From: a virus
Lineage: Duplodnaviria > Caudoviricetes
Strand: one strand, 5' to 3'
DNA length: 64,000 bases
IMG/VR virus record: IMGVR_UViG_3300021426_000001
The position numbers were made by a program, and so were the translations under genes. Each line of letters begins with the position of its first letter. Position 1 is the first letter of the stretch. The notes below the pieces were generated by a model that saw only the letters and a program-made list of their open reading frames with translations, was not told the DNA's origin and did not search any database. Shown here one piece after another: positions 16,401-48,010 of this stretch.

Positions 16401-16535
16401 ATTTCACCACTTTACACGTTATTTATAGCGCATTAGAGACGGTTTTAAAGCGCTTTAAGTATACAGCCGTGTGTTACCTTGGCCTTCTTAAAAAGCGCTT
16501 TAAAACGTCACGTATTCGTCTCTAGCGAAGCTTCC

Positions 16536-20751: not shown

Positions 20752-22518
20752 ATGTACGTGAAATTCAAGAAAATCAGATTCCGCAACTTCATGTCCTACG
20801 GCAACGGCTGGACGGAAGTGAACTTCGGATCAAAGCTGACCATCATCAACGCAGTGAACGGATCGGGCAAGTCGTCCATCGTGGACGCTATCTCTTTCGT
20901 TCTCTTCGGAAAGCCGTATAGAGAGATCAACATCAAGAGCCTCGTGAATCTCATCAACAAGCGCCATGCCGAAGTGGAGATCGACTTCGACATCGGCAGC
21001 GACTCATATCACATGATGAGAGGGCTGCAGCCGTCAAAGTTCGAGATGACCAAGAACGGCGAGACGGTTGATCTGCTGTCCTCGAAGAAGCTAAATCAGG
21101 TAGAGATCGACAAGATTCTCGGCGTAAAGTATCTTCTCTTCAAGAACGTGATGTGCATTGGCGCAATCTCAAATGTGCCGTTCTTCAACATGAGCGTCCC
21201 TGACAGACGCGAGCTACTGGAGACCATCTTCGGACTCTCGAACATTGCAGAGATGCTGAAGGACGTGAAGCTGAGAAACAGCAACAACAAGTCGGCGCTA
21301 GTGAGCAAGCGAGCTTCGAGAGATGCCGTCAAGACCTGCATCGAGAACACGAAGACCTTCATCGCTGACACGATCCAGAAGTCTAAGAAGTTCGAAGAGA
21401 ACCAAGCTGCAAGAATAGCTAAGATTCGAGAGCACATCGACGAGATCACTGACGAGATGATGAAGCACAAGATGAACGCTTCGAAGTGCCAAGCGAAGCT
21501 GGAGGAGCTGAAGCCCAAGTTCGACATCTTGGAGATCGACAGACTCAAGAAGTCGTTTGATCAGATGAATGAAGTCTTGGCTGTGAACCTCGCTAGATAC
21601 AAGGAGATCCGAGAGAAGCTGTCGAACCGAGACAAAGCCGTCTGTCCTATATGCGGAACGGACCTCTCAAGCGAAGAGGCTGTGAAGTATTTCGAGAAGC
21701 TTGAGAGGGAGTCCGCTAGCCTCTTGGAAGAGCGAAAGAGGGTGAACGCCGAGATGGAGGAAGCGACTGCCGCTTACAACGAGAACACGAACAACCTCAA
21801 CTTCTACACGAAGGTAGAGCAGAGAAAGCAGCAAGAGCTTGACGCCATGACTCCGCTAGAGAAGTCGATTCTCTTCAACGAGAAGCAGATCTACGACATC
21901 GAAAAAGAGACCAACGACTTCGACGTTACCGAGCACAACAAGAGTCTGGAATCCTACCAGAGCCAGGAGACGCAGCTGAACAAGGAGATCGATGAGCTAG
22001 AAGAGAAGATCGCAGTCGACATCGACTTGGCCTCTATTCTCTCAGATGACGGAATCAAGCGCTACTTCTTTGACGAGATCGTTCCGGTGCTCAACATCAA
22101 AGTGAACGAGTACATCAAGAAGTTCGGCTTGGATCACGAGATCGAGTTCGACAACGGACTCAACTACCAGATCCGTCGTGGTCAGCTCGAGATGGAGTAC
22201 AACGGCCTCTCGAACGGCGAGAAGACCAGAGTGAACGTCGCTATGATGCTCACCTTCTACGACATCGCAAAGCAGCTGTCCAACTGGAGCTGCTCTATAT
22301 TGTTCATGGACGAGATCTTCGACACTGGCATTGACGCAGACGGAATCAACTCGTTCCTTCAGGAGCTTCTCGGAATGCTAAATCGCGACGAGAAACTCGG
22401 CGTGTACTTAATTTCGCACAAGCTAAATGAATTAAATTTGAACAATATAGAGTATGATACGATGAAGGTCTACAAGAACGGACTCTTCAGCAAGATACAC
22501 ATGAAGGAAAGCAAATGA
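20752..22518 (+). CDS. recombination endonuclease ATPase subunit (T4 gp46/SbcC/Rad50-like)
   Basis: FKKIRFRNFMSYGN, Walker A NGSGKS, CPIC zinc hook, LSNGEK signature, FMDE Walker B; true start is the ATG at 20752. Confidence 0.95.
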   Translation: MYVKFKKIRFRNFMSYGNGWTEVNFGSKLTIINAVNGSGKSSIVDAISFVLFGKPYREINIKSLVNLINKRHAEVEIDFDIGSDSYHMMRGLQPSKFEMTKNGETVDLLSSKKLNQVEIDKILGVKYLLFKNVMCIGAISNVPFFNMSVPDRRELLETIFGLSNIAEMLKDVKLRNSNNKSALVSKRASRDAVKTCIENTKTFIADTIQKSKKFEENQAARIAKIREHIDEITDEMMKHKMNASKCQAKLEELKPKFDILEIDRLKKSFDQMNEVLAVNLARYKEIREKLSNRDKAVCPICGTDLSSEEAVKYFEKLERESASLLEERKRVNAEMEEATAAYNENTNNLNFYTKVEQRKQQELDAMTPLEKSILFNEKQIYDIEKETNDFDVTEHNKSLESYQSQETQLNKEIDELEEKIAVDIDLASILSDDGIKRYFFDEIVPVLNIKVNEYIKKFGLDHEIEFDNGLNYQIRRGQLEMEYNGLSNGEKTRVNVAMMLTFYDIAKQLSNWSCSILFMDEIFDTGIDADGINSFLQELLGMLNRDEKLGVYLISHKLNELNLNNIEYDTMKVYKNGLFSKIHMKESK

Positions 22519-42781: not shown

Positions 42782-42811
42782 GAGTGGTCCCTTGTTCCTG
42801 TTTACGCTATC

Positions 42812-42902
42812 AATATAGGATTTTCTCAAGGCTTTGTAAATGGAAAAAATTGAGATTTTCTCAAAAATAGGGGTTTACAAAGTGTCTGGAAAATCCTATA
42901 TT
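42812..42902. promoter_or_regulatory. divergent pair of early promoters (minus 42812-42840, plus 42874-42902)
   Basis: Both match TTTACA-N17-TATATT. Confidence 0.85.
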
Positions 42903-42931
42903 CTACTCGTAAAACAACAAAGGACCTAGAA

Positions 42932-44746
42932 ATGGAAATCGAGATCACTCCGGAAAACGTAGAAAAGAAGTTCGCCAACGCAGTCGACTACTACTGCATC
43001 TACATGCCGAACCTCCTCAACTTCTACCAGCTGTTCACACGCCGCGTGAACAACAAGATCGCTTCCATGAGAATCTGCGTCAAGCGCGACGTCACTCCGG
43101 TTCTCGAATACAACGAGAAGTGGGTCTGCGAAATCGACCCGGCTCTCTTCAATCAGGCTCTCGCAATCGATCTCTACCGCTTCATCAATCATCACTGCAC
43201 GCTTCGTGAACTTCAGGGCGCTAACGCTTTCAAGGCTTCCACTGCCGTCTGCAACAGCCCGGAACTTCAACAGTTCCTCAAGGCTGCTCCGTTCGAACTC
43301 GCCGAGATGGCTAGAAAGCTCATCTGGTCTCGCGAAATCATCGAAGAAGAGATCGGAGAGAAGATCTCTGATGAAGACTGGTATTATGAATCCGTCTTCG
43401 AGATCCTCAACCGCAAGTCTCCGCAACAGCAGCAACAGAACCAGAACCAAGACGACAACCAGTCTGGATCTGGTCAGGAACAGCAGCAACAGTCTGGGTC
43501 TTCCGACGATGACAAGAAGGATGACAACAAGGACGGCTCTGGCAAGAACGACCAGAAGGACAAGGACGACAAGTCCAAGGGCTCTTCTAAGAAGGACAAG
43601 GATGGAGAAGAGGGCGACAAGGACTCTGACTCCGACCAACAGGACGGAGACGGTGACGGCGACGAAGAAGACCAAGACCAGAACTCCAACGGCAAGGACG
43701 GAAAGGACAAGGACTCTAACGGGAAAGACGGAAAGGACAAGGACTCTAAGGACCAAGACCAAGAAGGTGACGGCAAGGGCGACAAGAACCAGAAGTCCGA
43801 TGGAAAGGACGGAAAGGATGACCAGAACGAGCAGAACAGCCAAAACGGCGGCAAGGACGGTCAGGAGGGAGACGAAGAAGACGACTCCGACGAACAGGAC
43901 GGCGAAGGCGATTCTGACTCCAAAGACGGTCAAAACGGCAAAGACGGCGATTCCGACAAGCAGGACGGAAACGGCGGAAAGAGCCCTCGTGACCAAGAAC
44001 TCGACGACAACGCCAACGCAGATCCGTCCAAGGCTCCGAACAGCACTGGAAATCCGTTCAAGGACTGGAGCTCTAATGGCGACGAAAACACCGAAGAATG
44101 GGGCAGAAATCAGGTCGTAGACCAGCTCATTCAGGAAGCTTTTGAACACAGCAAGAGCACTGGCTGGGGCTCTCTCACCGGTTCCGAGATCTCTCAAATC
44201 GAGATCGCCAACCGCAGAAAGATCAGCATCACGCCGATTATCGCTTCTTTCGCTGCCTCTGTCCGCACGAGAAAGCGCTTCGCAACCCGCATGCGCTACA
44301 ACAAGCGCTACGGATTGATCTTTCCGGGCTACCGTCTCGACCGCAAGTCCAGAATCCTCTTCGCCATCGACTCTTCGGGATCTATGAGCGACGAAGACAT
44401 CAACAAGGGCTGCGCAATTCTGCACAACTTCCTCAAGAAGTGCGACATCGACGTGGCATTCTGGGATGCACAGATGATTGACCCGTTCAAGTTCAAGAAG
44501 AACATCACGAAGATCGATGCTCCGGGCCGTGGCGGCACTGATCCGCACTGCGTAGGTGAATACCTCGACGAACATCAGAAGCTCCACTACGACGGCGTCA
44601 TCCTCTTCACTGACTGCATCTGGCGCTGGGAAGAGAACAACCTCAAGATGCCTATCTTCATCATCAGCTCGGAAGAAAAATACCGCGTGCCGAGCTTCGT
44701 GAAGCACCATACGACGATCCAGGCTCTCACTCACTGCTTCGACTAA
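42932..44746 (+). CDS. VWA-domain protein (DUF2201-type: peptidase-like N-domain, acidic low-complexity linker, VWA)
   Basis: MIDAS motif IDSSGSM, GRGGTD, ILFTD; D/K/G/Q-rich linker. Confidence 0.85.
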   Translation: MEIEITPENVEKKFANAVDYYCIYMPNLLNFYQLFTRRVNNKIASMRICVKRDVTPVLEYNEKWVCEIDPALFNQALAIDLYRFINHHCTLRELQGANAFKASTAVCNSPELQQFLKAAPFELAEMARKLIWSREIIEEEIGEKISDEDWYYESVFEILNRKSPQQQQQNQNQDDNQSGSGQEQQQQSGSSDDDKKDDNKDGSGKNDQKDKDDKSKGSSKKDKDGEEGDKDSDSDQQDGDGDGDEEDQDQNSNGKDGKDKDSNGKDGKDKDSKDQDQEGDGKGDKNQKSDGKDGKDDQNEQNSQNGGKDGQEGDEEDDSDEQDGEGDSDSKDGQNGKDGDSDKQDGNGGKSPRDQELDDNANADPSKAPNSTGNPFKDWSSNGDENTEEWGRNQVVDQLIQEAFEHSKSTGWGSLTGSEISQIEIANRRKISITPIIASFAASVRTRKRFATRMRYNKRYGLIFPGYRLDRKSRILFAIDSSGSMSDEDINKGCAILHNFLKKCDIDVAFWDAQMIDPFKFKKNITKIDAPGRGGTDPHCVGEYLDEHQKLHYDGVILFTDCIWRWEENNLKMPIFIISSEEKYRVPSFVKHHTTIQALTHCFD

Positions 44747-44765
44747 CTTCAACCAAGGACAAACT

Positions 44766-44981
44766 ATGAACAAGAAACTCATCGCACGCTTCATCCACGA
44801 CTTCGTAGAATCCAAGTACCGCGATCTCATTCCCTACTCTGTCATCGAGAATTCAGTCACTGTGTACCCTGATGGCAGATTTGGCTTCAACTGTCATGAT
44901 CTGATGATGAAGTACGGGATAGGCCTAGATCAGTTCAAGAGGGACTTCTCAGACCTGATTCTGATCTTCAACAAGACGTAG
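44766..44981 (+). CDS. hypothetical early protein
   Basis: AAGGAC SD. Confidence 0.7.
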   Translation: MNKKLIARFIHDFVESKYRDLIPYSVIENSVTVYPDGRFGFNCHDLMMKYGIGLDQFKRDFSDLILIFNKT

Positions 44982-45015
44982 CGCATAAAAATCCGAGAAA
45001 ATCTGAAAATCGAGG

Positions 45016-45044
45016 TTTACAAAGAACCTCGATTTTTCTATATT
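45016..45044 (+). promoter_or_regulatory. early promoter TTTACA-N17-TATATT
   Basis: Conserved early motif with GTAAAACAAAGG at 45051. Confidence 0.85.
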
Positions 45045-45072
45045 GGGAATGTAAAACAAAGGGAATTGAACC

Positions 45073-45378
45073 ATGAGAAAAGATGAAAAGCTCCACAAAA
45101 TCTACGTTGCGCTCGAAAACGCACTCAAAGATCTCAATCTTCAGCATCACGGCTATCCGGAAATAGTGAACTTCACGGTCTTCCAGACTGGCACTCCAGA
45201 GGTCTTCGCATTCTTCCCTAACCTCGGTCTCGTTGAGGCTAAGGTAGCTGCAGGCGAGACTACGGTCGACGAAGTCATGAGGAACGTCAAGAAGTTCGAC
45301 GACGAAACCGCAGAATATCTCTTCGAAGTCGCATCCGATCTCTACTTCCACAACACTTTCGTGGGTCTTCCCAAATAA
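45073..45378 (+). CDS. hypothetical early protein
   Basis: Has its own early promoter and SD. Confidence 0.8.
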   Translation: MRKDEKLHKIYVALENALKDLNLQHHGYPEIVNFTVFQTGTPEVFAFFPNLGLVEAKVAAGETTVDEVMRNVKKFDDETAEYLFEVASDLYFHNTFVGLPK

Positions 45379-45404
45379 AACTCAAAATTTTCTCGATTTT
45401 GGGG

Positions 45405-45433
45405 TTTACAATCTGTTGAGAAATTCCTATATT
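45405..45433 (+). promoter_or_regulatory. early promoter TTTACA-N17-TATATT
   Basis: Conserved early motif. Confidence 0.85.
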
Positions 45434-45478
45434 GATAATGTAAAACAAAAGAGCTAACTTCAACAAGGACCATTTAAA

Positions 45479-46606
45479 ATGCTCGAAAAAGTCTCTATCG
45501 CAGAATTTATCGAACTCGCCCTCTGCTGCCCTGATGAACAGGCAATGCTCATTCTCGGCGACTTCGGTATTGGTAAGACCCAAGTCGTTCAGAAGGTCGG
45601 AACTATTCTCGGAATAGACGTCATCGTGTTCGACTGCACTCACCTCAATGACCCTGGCGACATTCTCGGTCTTCCGTCCATCATCAACGGTCGCACCATC
45701 TTCAACCCGACTTACTGGTATCATCCTGAAAAGCCGGTGCTGCTCTTCTTCGACGAAGTATTCCGTGCTACTCCGGAAGTTCGCGCTGCTCTCATGACTC
45801 TCTGCTTGGACCAGACAATTGGCGACAAGAAGCTCGCTCCTGGCTCTCGCGTCTTCGCTGCTGCTAACCCGCCGGGATTCCACGGCTACGAAGGTGAAAT
45901 TCCTGACCCGGCTCAGCTCTCCCGCTACGCTCCGTACTGGCTTGATCCGACCTTCAACGAATGGTACGAATACGCTAAGGAAGCTAAGGTTCACCCAGCT
46001 ATCCTCGAATACTTGAACAACAACAAGAAGGACCTCGACGCTTACTCCGCTGCTAGCGACATGAACGTCGCAGCCGACGACGGCAACGGCGCCGACCTCA
46101 AGATCCTCCAGTGCCGTCGTTCTTGGTTCAAGGCTTCCGACAACCTCTACAAGGCCGAGAAGGTCAAGAAGGTCAAGAAGCTCGACCGAAACCTCGTGAT
46201 CCGCATCATGAGCGGCTACATCCCGGCTACGATGGCTGTGAAGTTCGCTCAGACCTACATGAACACTTCCACTTCGAGCCTCAACGCCGAAGACGTCCTC
46301 AACGACTGGAAGAAGGTCAAACCGGCCGATGGCGCTAAGCTGGATGTGCCGACCGCTGCAAAGCTCGCTGGCGACATCAAGCTCATCGTCAAGGAAACGA
46401 TGAAGGAAAAGGGATCTATCCCGAAGAAGTGGAAGAACAACTTCTCTGGCTTCATTCAGGAAGGTCTCTCGAAGGAATCCCAAGTCGCTGTCATTAACAA
46501 CCTGATCTTCCAGGACATGACGAACAACGAAGACTGGGTCTTCTGGATCTCCGACGACGAACTCCAGTCGTTCTTCGAAACCACGGTGGCCTCCAAGGTC
46601 GCCTAA
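45479..46606 (+). CDS. MoxR-like AAA+ ATPase
   Basis: Walker A GDFGIGKT, Walker B LLFFDE, sensor AAANP, arginine finger DPAQLSR. Confidence 0.9.
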   Translation: MLEKVSIAEFIELALCCPDEQAMLILGDFGIGKTQVVQKVGTILGIDVIVFDCTHLNDPGDILGLPSIINGRTIFNPTYWYHPEKPVLLFFDEVFRATPEVRAALMTLCLDQTIGDKKLAPGSRVFAAANPPGFHGYEGEIPDPAQLSRYAPYWLDPTFNEWYEYAKEAKVHPAILEYLNNNKKDLDAYSAASDMNVAADDGNGADLKILQCRRSWFKASDNLYKAEKVKKVKKLDRNLVIRIMSGYIPATMAVKFAQTYMNTSTSSLNAEDVLNDWKKVKPADGAKLDVPTAAKLAGDIKLIVKETMKEKGSIPKKWKNNFSGFIQEGLSKESQVAVINNLIFQDMTNNEDWVFWISDDELQSFFETTVASKVA

Positions 46607-46619
46607 CATTAAAATTCTC

Positions 46620-46677
46620 GGACCCTCACCCTTTCCTTATGGTCCTTTGTTTTACACTGGGTGAGGGTCCTTTCTTG
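46620..46677 (+). terminator. intrinsic terminator with a 12-bp stem and a 27-nt loop antisense to early leaders
   Basis: GGACCCTCACCC/GGGTGAGGGTCC followed by TTTCTT. Confidence 0.75.
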
Positions 46678-46701
46678 TATAAATAAAGAGAGGTTTAAAT
46701 T

Positions 46702-47466
46702 ATGTCAATGGATATTGAAAAAGCGCTTAACATACTCTCTGAGTCTCACATCATCTTGGAGAGAAAGAAGGTCTCTGAGATGACTCCTGAAGAGTACGAG
46801 AGAGATCTCGCAGCGAGAAGAAAGAGAAGAGAGCTTAGAAAGCAGAGAGCTGCTAACGCTTCGCCTGCTCAGCAGCCTGAGAAACCGAAACAGGCTGAGC
46901 CGAGAGAAACTCCGAAGCCGACTGGAAAGTGGTACGTGATCGGAAGGAGATCTCCGATTCCAGAGACACTAGAAGAAAAGGGACTCGTGAAGAAGCTCGC
47001 TACTAATGAGGACCTAGATGCATTCTTGAGATACAAGGGCGGTCTGAAGATGGGCCCGTTCGGCACTAAGGAAGAGGCTGTGGCTGCAGCGAGAAGCTCA
47101 GTGAAGAATCTAGTGAACTATTACAGAGATAGAATCTCCAAGAAGGTAAAAGAGAATCCAGACTACTTGACTGAGTACTCTCAGGACAATTCCTACGTCA
47201 ATTCTAAGCTATACGTAGTAGACTTCTCCGAGAAGAACCGCAAATGGTCTAGCGGTAGAAGAGGTCCGGGCGACTCTGGCTGGTGGTACAACTCAGACGA
47301 TGAGGCTTCTGACAATTTGAACAGACCAGCTAAGAAGTTCAACGACGACCTCACGAAGCTCATAGAGGATGCACTAGAGGCTAAGCGTGAGCGTCAGAGA
47401 CGCAGCAGCTACTCTTCATGGGATCCGAACTCTCCGACCTACAGAAACGTCTTCGCTCATCATTAA
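46702..47466 (+). CDS. putative internal head protein (paralogue 1)
   Basis: TATAAATA at 46678-46685; ILSESHIILE N-terminus. Confidence 0.65.
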   Translation: MSMDIEKALNILSESHIILERKKVSEMTPEEYERDLAARRKRRELRKQRAANASPAQQPEKPKQAEPRETPKPTGKWYVIGRRSPIPETLEEKGLVKKLATNEDLDAFLRYKGGLKMGPFGTKEEAVAAARSSVKNLVNYYRDRISKKVKENPDYLTEYSQDNSYVNSKLYVVDFSEKNRKWSSGRRGPGDSGWWYNSDDEASDNLNRPAKKFNDDLTKLIEDALEAKRERQRRSSYSSWDPNSPTYRNVFAHH

Positions 47467-47481
47467 GAAGGAGATTTGAAC

Positions 47482-47955
47482 ATGTCTATGGATCTAAAAA
47501 GAGCACTTGGAATTATCAATGAGTCTAGACTCATTCTTGAGCGTAAGAGGGCTTCTGAAATGACGCCTGAAGAGCACGAGAAGTATCTAGCTGATAGATC
47601 GAACAGAAGAGCTGCGAGAAAGAGAGTAGCGTCTTTCGCAGTAGAGAGGAACAAGCTAAAAGAACTAATCGCTTGCGCCGAGGGTCTACTTGGGGCTAGA
47701 GAAGAGCTCCTGAAGAGAGGCTGGGAACCACTAGAGGGACGTGACATCGACAAAGAGCATCAGGGATTCTGGCTCAAGAAGGCTAATGGACCCGATAGAT
47801 GGATATATGTTGGAGCCCACATCGCATACCTAGGCGATGGCGTAAGAGTACGTATCGACAATCCAGCAGAAGATGCGTTCATAAAGCCTGTAGCTACTAA
47901 GGAATCGATCGTATCAGCTATCGATAATCTCTTGGCTAAGAACAATCTTCAGTAG
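47482..47955 (+). CDS. putative internal head protein (paralogue 2)
   Basis: Shares its N-terminal ~50 aa with the previous gene; AAGGAG SD. Confidence 0.65.
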   Translation: MSMDLKRALGIINESRLILERKRASEMTPEEHEKYLADRSNRRAARKRVASFAVERNKLKELIACAEGLLGAREELLKRGWEPLEGRDIDKEHQGFWLKKANGPDRWIYVGAHIAYLGDGVRVRIDNPAEDAFIKPVATKESIVSAIDNLLAKNNLQ

Positions 47956-47970
47956 AAGAAAATCCAAATG

Positions 47971-48010
47971 ACAAAAAGAGCAGAGCCGTCAAGCTCTGCT
48001 CTCTTTTTGT
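47971..48010. terminator. bidirectional intrinsic terminator
   Basis: AGAGCAGAGC/GCTCTGCTCT stem flanked by A- and T-runs between convergent genes. Confidence 0.85.

Follow-up and report, generated by a model that had tools for sequence, protein, structure and literature searches.

The DNA analyzed here is a 64,000-nt stretch of the IMG/VR virus record IMGVR_UViG_3300021426_000001, referred to below as the window, and window coordinates are used throughout. It is part of an uncultured T4-like jumbo phage from the ruminant gut. Relatives of the window phage (given L or G numbers where they need to be told apart) are represented by contigs of 110 to 298 kb, one of them with direct terminal repeats at 243 kb, and encode Gp23, gp13, gp32, and NrdD. 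DNA runs containing the sequence came from sheep, cattle, and goat gut. A nucleotide search against cultured phages gave no match, and protein matches to cultured phages showed only 24 to 28% identity. The element in question is an RNA hairpin at positions 46620 to 46670, which begins 13 nt after the stop codon of a moxR-like gene. This gene is the last in an early cluster that comprises a divergent gene, a VWA gene, an open reading frame (ORF) of 71 amino acids (aa), a 101-aa gene, and moxR. The hairpin, its parts, and the features that adjoin it are as follows.

45479 to 46606, plus strand: moxR-like AAA ATPase gene, early (Pfam AAA_5; orthologues found), with the hairpin following
46620 to 46631, plus strand: 5′ arm of the hairpin, GGACCCTCACCC, pairing fully with the 3′ arm
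46632 to 46658, plus strand: hairpin loop of 27 nt, antisense to the compact early 5′ untranslated region (5′UTR)
46641 to 46649, plus strand: core GGTCCTTTG directed against the Shine-Dalgarno (SD) sequence, complementary to the early SD (C)AAAGGACC and conserved universally
46649 to 46656, plus strand: GTTTTACA, complementary to the predicted 5′ end of early mRNA, TGTAAAAC, and restricted to some lineages
46659 to 46670, plus strand: 3′ arm of the hairpin, GGGTGAGGGTCC, 100% complementary to the 5′ arm
46671 to 46677, plus strand: T-rich, terminator-like tail TTTCTTG
46678 to 46685, plus strand: late promoter of the T4 type, TATAAATA, serving the gene at 46702, 7 nt past the stem

A preliminary description of this DNA, made from the letters alone, had reported a perfect 12-bp GC-rich stem around a 27-nt loop, and this is what is found, with G-C at 10 of the 12 pairs. 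RNA folding returned a single hairpin with the same stem (minimum free energy, −29.7 kcal/mol; z = −3.2). As in intrinsic terminators, the GC-rich stem is followed by a U-tract and lies at the end of a transcription unit, beyond which comes a late promoter or the terminator of the convergent nrdD gene. The loop does not have the usual 3 to 8 nt of such terminators, at 27 nt in the window and 23 to 28 nt in relatives, and a consensus terminator scan limited to loops of 3 to 8 nt did not call the hairpin. No Rfam family, C4 included, was matched on either strand between 45350 and 46800 at an E value of ≤1. The late promoter begins only 7 nt downstream, and the hairpin therefore closes the early unit and marks the end of early transcription at the moxR cluster. 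As the late box drives the next gene, the gene at 46702 is independent of read-through. Two other pairings for the loop were considered and set aside: GGTCC of the loop could pair with a stem arm in most relatives, but the arm involved switches in the window and the pairing is not conserved, and the complement needed for pairing with C-terminal moxR codons (CAAGG) is absent in L001.

Two promoter classes can be recognized in the window, and they differ in the ribosome-binding sequences that follow them. The early class is σ70-like (TTTACA-N17-TATATT) and has 9 exact copies against 0.01 expected; 5 to 6 nt further on there is usually GTAAAAC and then an SD of the form (C)AA(A)GGACC. The preliminary description had grouped these sequences as an early leader class, and the grouping holds, since most promoter copies carry both GTAAAAC and an AAGGAC(C) SD. 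The late box, TATAAATA, is present in 13 copies against 2 expected, every one upstream of a gene start, and late genes have SDs of the GAGAGG type or are almost leaderless. In the two complete relatives, G001 and G002, A(A/G)GGACC lies within 60 nt downstream of 17 of 44 early promoters in one and 19 of 38 in the other, but downstream of none of the 55 and 48 late ones (p = 1e-7 and 6e-9). The corresponding counts in the window are 4 of 11 and 0 of 13. AAGGACC is thus private to early genes, and a loop directed against it would therefore tell early from late mRNAs.

The reverse complement of the hairpin loop reads as the complete layout of a compact early 5′UTR, with GTAAAAC at the predicted start, the start positions being derived from promoter spacing, followed by the AAGGACC SD region. 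Four early leaders of the cluster bear on this.

42783 to 42840, minus strand: divergent early promoter and 5′UTR, with the SD AAGGGACC in the window; orthologues of the gene encode 199 to 207 aa
42874 to 42931, plus strand: early promoter and 5′UTR of the VWA gene, a candidate target, with AACAAAGGACC at 42916 to 42926
45016 to 45072, plus strand: early promoter and 5′UTR of the 101-aa gene, the best loop match in the window (13 nt exact, 45050 to 45062)
45405 to 45478, plus strand: early promoter and 5′UTR of moxR, a candidate target, with TGTAAAACAAA at 45439 to 45449 and AAGGACCAT at 45465 to 45473

All leader matches listed in the preliminary description are present, namely the sites at 45050, 45439, 45465, and 42916 and the leaders at 1788, 11190, and 35228. 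The 13-mer TGTAAAACAAAGG occurs at exactly two sites in the window, 45050 to 45062 on the plus strand and the loop on the minus strand; shuffles gave 0.66 matches even with 2 mismatches allowed. The longer 15-mer GTAAAACAAAGGACC, the reverse complement of the loop, is exact in the loop only, and its 3-mismatch matches in the window are the early leaders at 1788, 11190, 35228, 42912, 45051, and 45440. By our own arithmetic, the chance of a 13-nt exact match to approximately 400 nt of independently defined early 5′UTRs is about 1e-4. The duplex of the loop with the 101-aa gene leader has a predicted energy of −25.3 kcal/mol and is the top non-self match in the window, where the background is −9.4 ± 3.1 kcal/mol. 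Duplex energies were used in place of RNAcofold values, for which hairpin plus leader gave the same result with shuffled loops, the model treating loop-to-linear pairing as a pseudoknot. A second anti-SD tract in the loop, TTCCTT, is common only to the window phage, L013, and L021.

The preliminary description had proposed looking for the loop in relatives, for its covariation with leaders, and for the same loop in other terminators; the outcome was for the most part favorable, and its interpretation is partly supported. Seventeen relatives with MoxR identities of 60 to 99% were drawn from IMG/VR, JGI metagenomes, and public assemblies, and the hairpin is present in all 16 that retain the region downstream of moxR (protein identity, 60 to 78%). 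Across 10 aligned sequences, 120 of 120 pair cells are paired, compared with 37 to 60% in slid controls, and 5 of the 12 pairs show compensatory double changes. The stems of L013/L021, L019, and L014 differ largely in sequence and keep perfect pairing. The stem is therefore a conserved RNA structure, and a terminal G-U pair in L010 and L018, which would be an A-C mismatch on the opposite strand, indicates an RNA of the plus strand.

Loop size is 23 to 28 nt in all relatives except L022. In the loop of every moxR 3′ hairpin, GGTCCTT and then (T)(T)G can be read, which together complement (C)(A)(A)AAGGACC, while moxR synonymous-site identity between the window and the others is only about 0.57 to 0.69 and divergence extends to the flanks and to the loop on its 5′ side. 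From this sequence comparison, the loop is judged to be under selection. An 18-nt loop block is common to the window phage, L001, L019, and L014, its T run alone differing in length by a single T. The T-rich tail is found in most relatives, is poor in L019, and is absent in L022. In the last of these, the long stem has been replaced by an 8-bp hairpin with an 11-nt loop, TCCTGGTCCTT, that has no U-tract and is followed by a true terminator, and this loop still contains CTGGTCCTT. Since the rebuilt hairpin keeps the anti-SD sequence, it is the display of the loop that is conserved, not termination. The preliminary description had the loop pairing with both the 5′ end and the SD of early mRNAs; the anti-SD part of this claim, GGTCCTT, is universal, whereas GTTTTAC, directed against the 5′ end, is kept in the window phage, L001/L018, L019, and L014 and has been replaced in a large clade that includes L003, L005, L007, and L013. 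GTTTTAC is probably ancestral because its holders include basal branches of the MoxR tree, and because of the replacement, pairing with the 5′ end is not general.

Three orthologous early leaders per phage, those of moxR, the VWA gene, and the divergent gene, were compared with the loops. In every phage, one or more early leaders carry a 9- to 16-nt exact complement of the loop that extends to the start codon, for example, 16 nt in L014 (VWA leader), 13 nt in the window (101-aa gene), 13 nt in L019 (moxR), and 12 nt in L003 (divergent gene); the divergent-gene leader is the best match (12 nt) in L003, L006, and L012. The 3′UTR motif is also complementary to the SD of its own mRNA, with 9 to 13 nt exact to the moxR leader wherever that leader is available. 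Loop-leader duplex energies across the phages range from −17 to −25 kcal/mol. The length of the T run in the loop (2, 3, or 4) tracks the A run of the orthologous VWA and divergent leaders or, in L019, that of the moxR leader. L014 has T4 with A4 and A4, and its sister L022 has T2 with A2 and A2; L001/L018 have T4 with A4 and A3, the window has T3 with A3, L019 has T3 with an A3 in the moxR leader that is unique to it, and the large clade has T2 with A2 throughout. Permutation of loops against leader sets favored the true pairing at a p value of about 1e-4, a figure confounded by clade structure. Loop-leader covariation thus appears to give moderate support for pairing, and only moderate because of this confounding and because leaders with two, three, and four A residues occur in each complete genome.

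The design recurs within the same genomes. Each complete genome has exactly two perfect GC-rich stems of 11 bp or more whose loop contains GGTCCTT, namely the moxR hairpin and a member of a second hairpin family. In this second family, an 11-bp GC-rich stem encloses 11 nt, T(C/T)CTGGTCCTT, and is followed by a U-tract, and the hairpin ends another early unit, one of three small genes; finding it in both complete relatives answers the proposal that other terminators might carry the same loop. Its stem shows a compensatory change between G001 and G002, and in G002, L075, and L084 it is directly followed by TATAAATA. By our estimate, about 0.02 such GGTCCTT loops would be expected by chance among the approximately 24 terminator-like hairpins per genome. 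Scans of IMG/VR with 16- and 17-mers returned mostly chance matches in unrelated contigs, together with a few extra copies of the two hairpin families in the closely related contigs L023, L024, and L084. In addition, the loop of a hairpin 3′ of gp32 is complementary to the ribosome site of the major capsid gene over 13 nt exactly in both complete relatives, and it covaries with that site between the genomes (TCCTTTT with AAAAGGA; CTCTTTT with AAAGAG). This is an independent instance of the same architecture. The gp32 and capsid genes are 17 to 19 kb apart, with early-type promoters and terminator-like hairpins between them in G002, and pairing in this case would therefore most likely act in trans. 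The positions of these further hairpins are as follows.

G002 21750 to 21782, plus strand (the same as L046 1750 to 1782), and G001 11068, minus strand: second hairpin family
G002 about 176,930 to 177,000, plus strand, and G001 about 103,600, minus strand: gp32 3′ hairpin, with the capsid gene start near G002 195,070

Some relatives show peculiarities around the moxR hairpin. In L003 (4110 to 4136), L005 (4122 to 4161), and L006 (4110 to 4153), one to three tandem units of about 17 nt (GCGCAAGCTTCGCTTA-like) lie between the moxR stop codon and the hairpin; they repeat the stop-codon region, and none is present in the window. The loops of L003, L004, and L010 (for example, L003 4149 to 4174) read TTCAAC and then TGGTCCTT, and the corresponding leaders read TTCAAC and then AAGGACCA. 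The SD core of the L003 clade may thus have been inverted in place, although the shared part is just a 6-mer and chance is possible. L019 is a mosaic: its MoxR falls in the L003 clade on a long branch, and its moxR leader, hairpin loop, and downstream late gene are of the window type.

Together, these observations suggest that the loop acts as an RNA directed against early ribosome-binding sites, in cis or in trans, and represses early translation, a reading to which we assign a probability of about 0.55. The hairpin would be the 3′-terminal element of the early moxR and VWA units, either a leaky or an ordinary intrinsic terminator. Its strong 12-bp stem would terminate and protect the RNA, and its large single-stranded loop would expose GGUCCUU(U)G and flanking bases, the complement of the early-only AAGGACC. 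The odd but conserved size of the loop could be accounted for in this way, as a duplex of at least 10 bp inside a closed loop needs a large loop. Whether it stayed on the full-length mRNA or persisted as a decay-resistant 3′ fragment, the loop would pair with the early initiation regions of moxR, possibly of the 101-aa and VWA genes, and of other mRNAs that share the SD. Pairing would hide the SD from the 30S subunit and perhaps open the duplex to RNases, and late mRNAs, with their different SDs, would escape. The outcome could be negative feedback on early translation or its timed shut-off; feedback is expected because the hairpin would be synthesized alongside its targets, and it would become a timer if the stem-protected 3′ fragment outlasted the mRNAs. 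That the loop pairs in vivo and represses translation is inferred, as are the persistence of a 3′ fragment and the sites at which transcription starts. Action in cis, as in icaR, and action in trans, as in RNAIII, are both compatible with the data. Some action in trans is favored because the best partner varies among phages, because a gene on the opposite strand matches, and because the gp32-capsid pair provides a precedent.

Several points weigh against this interpretation. Covariation is mostly at the level of clades, which partly confounds it with shared ancestry; inside a clade, the loop of a phage is sometimes matched better by the leaders of another phage, and the choice of run lengths among the leaders of each complete genome makes a run-length match easy. 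In the large clade, complementarity to the 5′ end has been lost, and its leaders often still begin with GTAAAAC. Exact matches of 10 to 14 nt are common by chance for random large loops in a 240-kb genome, and a genome-wide search of all large loops for complements of ribosome sites was noisy and serves as a caution. The case therefore rests on the identity of the matched sequences and on conservation, not on match length. The motif is present in only 2 of the approximately 24 terminator-like hairpins per genome, and with two hairpins facing about 20 target mRNAs, a long-lived fragment would be needed for stoichiometry. Finally, four ruminant metatranscriptome runs yielded low-depth moxR contigs, none of which covers 46620 to 46670; being assembled contigs, they are silent on RNA ends, strand, and level and bear neither way on a 3′ fragment. 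One contig spans the moxR promoter and could represent read-through or DNA.

Of the alternatives, the one that survives best is pairing of the 5′ and 3′ ends of one transcript, as in icaR, with the loop acting solely on the SDs of its own mRNA and with no class-wide action in trans. Such pairing could cap the rounds of translation per mRNA or couple mRNA decay to the completion of the transcript. It would account for the moxR leader complement seen in every phage for which the leader is available and for G002, where both anti-SD hairpins match the leader of their own unit through the variable G after ACCA. As no strong terminator lies between the VWA promoter and the hairpin, several of the matching leaders may share a transcript with it. 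The best-matching leader, however, differs among phages (moxR, VWA, divergent, or 101-aa gene), and the divergent gene, which is the best match in three of them, is on the other strand and can never be in cis. The second hairpin of G001 matches its own first leader over 7 nt, but a distant early leader over all 11 loop bases, and the gp32-capsid pair also points to trans. Restriction to cis is therefore considered unlikely.

The loop could instead be a binding site for a protein, such as a phage RNA-binding regulator or nuclease, its antisense likeness being incidental or serving another purpose, such as the control of termination or 3′-end processing. Conserved large loops on stable stems are typical of protein-binding platforms, and GGTCC-(N)-GTCT is found both in the 5′ arm and in the loop of the L003 clade, a likeness that is absent in the window phage, L013, and L019. 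Also on the side of a protein, Pfam searches of the two complete relatives, run without a positive control, detected no homologue of RegA or RegB. Against it, there is no candidate protein, the conserved bases are exactly those that complement the class-specific SD, and their register shifts with the leaders. We regard a protein site as somewhat less probable again than restriction to cis.

A neutral origin was also weighed, in which the loop of an ordinary terminator is left over from an early leader duplicated in inverted orientation and has no present function. The loop does resemble a copied piece, in that its reverse complement gives the whole compact 5′UTR in the right order, and its start-site part has decayed in one clade. 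A relic would not be expected to keep an invariant anti-SD core while the stem, the flanks, and the synonymous sites diverged, nor to retain that core in the rebuilt small hairpin of L022; the same core is also found on a second, unrelated stem, and the T run of the loop changes along with the A run of the leaders. This origin appears improbable.

In T4, the lysozyme gene e and soc are subject to masking of their ribosome sites on early transcripts. A comparable insulation here would have the hairpin mask a downstream late ribosome site on early read-through RNA, with transcripts from TATAAATA escaping, and a late promoter does lie 4 to 10 nt past the hairpin in many relatives and also after the second hairpin family. 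Neither loop nor stem is complementary to the late ribosome site, however (AAGAGAGG in the window; the late gene of G002 is almost leaderless), and the hairpin is kept where there is no late gene downstream (L001, L005, L007, and L014), which makes this arrangement very improbable.

A function of the minus strand or of the DNA itself, either as leader and SD for the antisense ORF at 45287 to 46609 (440 aa), which begins 11 nt past the hairpin and is open in most relatives, or as a site for recombination or inversion with the leaders, is hardly credible, because no early or late promoter lies upstream on the minus strand, the place of a −10 box being taken there by a stem arm, the antisense frame is interrupted in L001 and L007, the G-U pairs would there be A-C mismatches, and 17 of 17 relatives are collinear with no inverted arrangement. 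The preliminary description had itself raised the prospect that the loop is a remnant of a minus-strand early leader, and it falls with the missing promoter and with G-U pairs that fit the plus strand only. The antisense ORF over moxR has a counterpart of 634 aa over the VWA gene (42926 to 44830, minus strand). As the former is broken in two relatives and the VWA gene is shadowed by a similar ORF, it fits an artefact of codon usage (few TTA, CTA, and TCA codons) and not a real gene.

Other features of the neighborhood were noted. A perfect 12-bp inverted repeat at 45006 to 45036 surrounds the −35 box of the early promoter of the 101-aa gene, and its T run enters the −10 box; it resembles a combined terminator-promoter cassette and may form a partial end of the VWA unit. 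Downstream of the moxR hairpin, a cassette of two late genes (46702 to 47955), with its TATAAATA at 46678, lies between that hairpin and a bidirectional terminator at 47977 to 48002. L001, L004, L005, L012, and L014 lack the cassette and have the two hairpins side by side, and the genes found at this place in other relatives are not the same. In some relatives, seen in L018 (5809 to 9363) and L021 (1333 to 5692), inserted ORFs (a 372-aa gene; DUF7487/MTES_1575-like genes) interrupt the convergent nrdD gene, which suggests intron, intein, or homing-endonuclease insertions. Elsewhere in the window, a 15-bp perfect inverted repeat with a 35-nt loop (16442 to 16506, minus-strand reading) carries the palindrome AAAGCGCTTT in each arm and lies in the gap between two genes of the minus strand, closely followed by a late TATAAATA box.

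How early protein synthesis is shut off in large lytic phages outside the T4 model is mostly unknown. If repression by the loop is correct, early genes would be marked by a private ribosome-binding sequence, and the antisense of this sequence in loops at the ends of early operons would form a compact, protein-free feedback device or timer. The terminator loop would then be added to the seed positions available to bacterial and phage riboregulators, and there would be a reason for the noncanonical SD of early genes. The design recurs within the genome family, from gp32 to capsid, and may be a general principle. More tentatively, and with rather more doubt than confidence, T4-like rumen jumbo phages and perhaps many others could run part of their temporal program by a network of terminator-loop riboregulators. 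Several operon-terminal hairpins of such a network would carry loops as antisense addresses, each pointing to the ribosome site of one key gene or to those of a gene class, with two hairpin families directed to the early AAGGACC and the gp32 hairpin to the capsid site. The network would replace or complement protein factors such as RegA and RegB, and the private SD of early genes would have arisen to serve the switch as its handle. Elements of this kind are also a possible source of orthogonal translational switches for synthetic biology.

RNA elements directed against SD sequences are already known from the icaR 3′UTR, RNAIII loops, small RNAs (sRNAs) derived from mRNA 3′ ends, and c4. In the icaR mRNA of Staphylococcus aureus, the SD is bound by a UCCCCUG motif from the 3′UTR of that very mRNA (PMC3868564). 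The likeness lies in an anti-SD motif at the 3′ end of an mRNA facing the SD in its own 5′UTR, with a block of initiation and formation of an RNase substrate proposed. The icaR motif lies in a 3′UTR of more than 100 nt, whereas that of the phage is in a terminator loop close behind the stop codon. The phage target is a class-wide private SD, found in the first genes of about half of the early promoters, so that action of the loop in trans is possible; the loop, whose pairing is predicted from sequence, belongs to a lytic T4-like phage.

The hairpin loops of RNAIII and the Rsa RNAs of S. aureus bind SD regions (PMC2837412, PMC2790875). As is proposed for the phage, an exposed loop pairs with the ribosome sites of several targets, blocks the 30S subunit, and invites RNase III, and in RNAIII the hairpins of the 3′ domain are involved. 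Those loops are C-rich (UCCC), usually small, and part of a dedicated regulatory RNA, whereas the phage loop is U-rich (GGUCCUU), has 23 to 28 nt, and forms the 3′ end of a protein-coding early operon. The sRNAs derived from mRNA 3′ ends share the terminator of their parent gene (reviewed in PMC9438474), and the phage element would likewise be a regulatory RNA from an mRNA 3′ end with its terminator hairpin kept. A conserved single-stranded seed, as expected of such sRNAs, is present in the invariant GGTCCTT, with AAGGACC as its target, and its position in the terminator loop is atypical. Known seeds are mostly single stranded and 5′ of the terminator, and many of these sRNAs depend on Hfq or ProQ, whereas the seed of the phage would be the terminator loop itself.

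The loops of c4 antisense RNA pair with phage mRNA and mask a ribosome-binding site, and c4 is produced from the same transcript as its target. It is found in phages P1 and P7 (Rfam C4) and is mentioned in PMC8198154. The moxR element is the terminator hairpin of a lytic, T4-like phage, whereas c4 is an RNA of its own, released by processing and located upstream of its target in an immunity operon of temperate phages, and in Rfam it matches the moxR hairpin in neither sequence nor structure. The preliminary description knew of no phage example of its proposal. With c4 masking a ribosome site in P1 and P7, this was too broad as regards phages in general, for which a partial precedent exists; it stands for terminator loops, as literature searches turned up no described terminator loop with a class-specific sequence against ribosome sites in a lytic T4-like phage.

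T4 controls its early mRNAs with RegB, which cleaves at GGAG within their SDs, and with RegA, which binds to their initiation regions (PMC1702504, PMC3014915). Like these factors, the element described here would inactivate early mRNAs as a class by acting on their ribosome-binding sites, but the T4 factors are proteins, whereas in the rumen phages an RNA loop would recognize the early SD.

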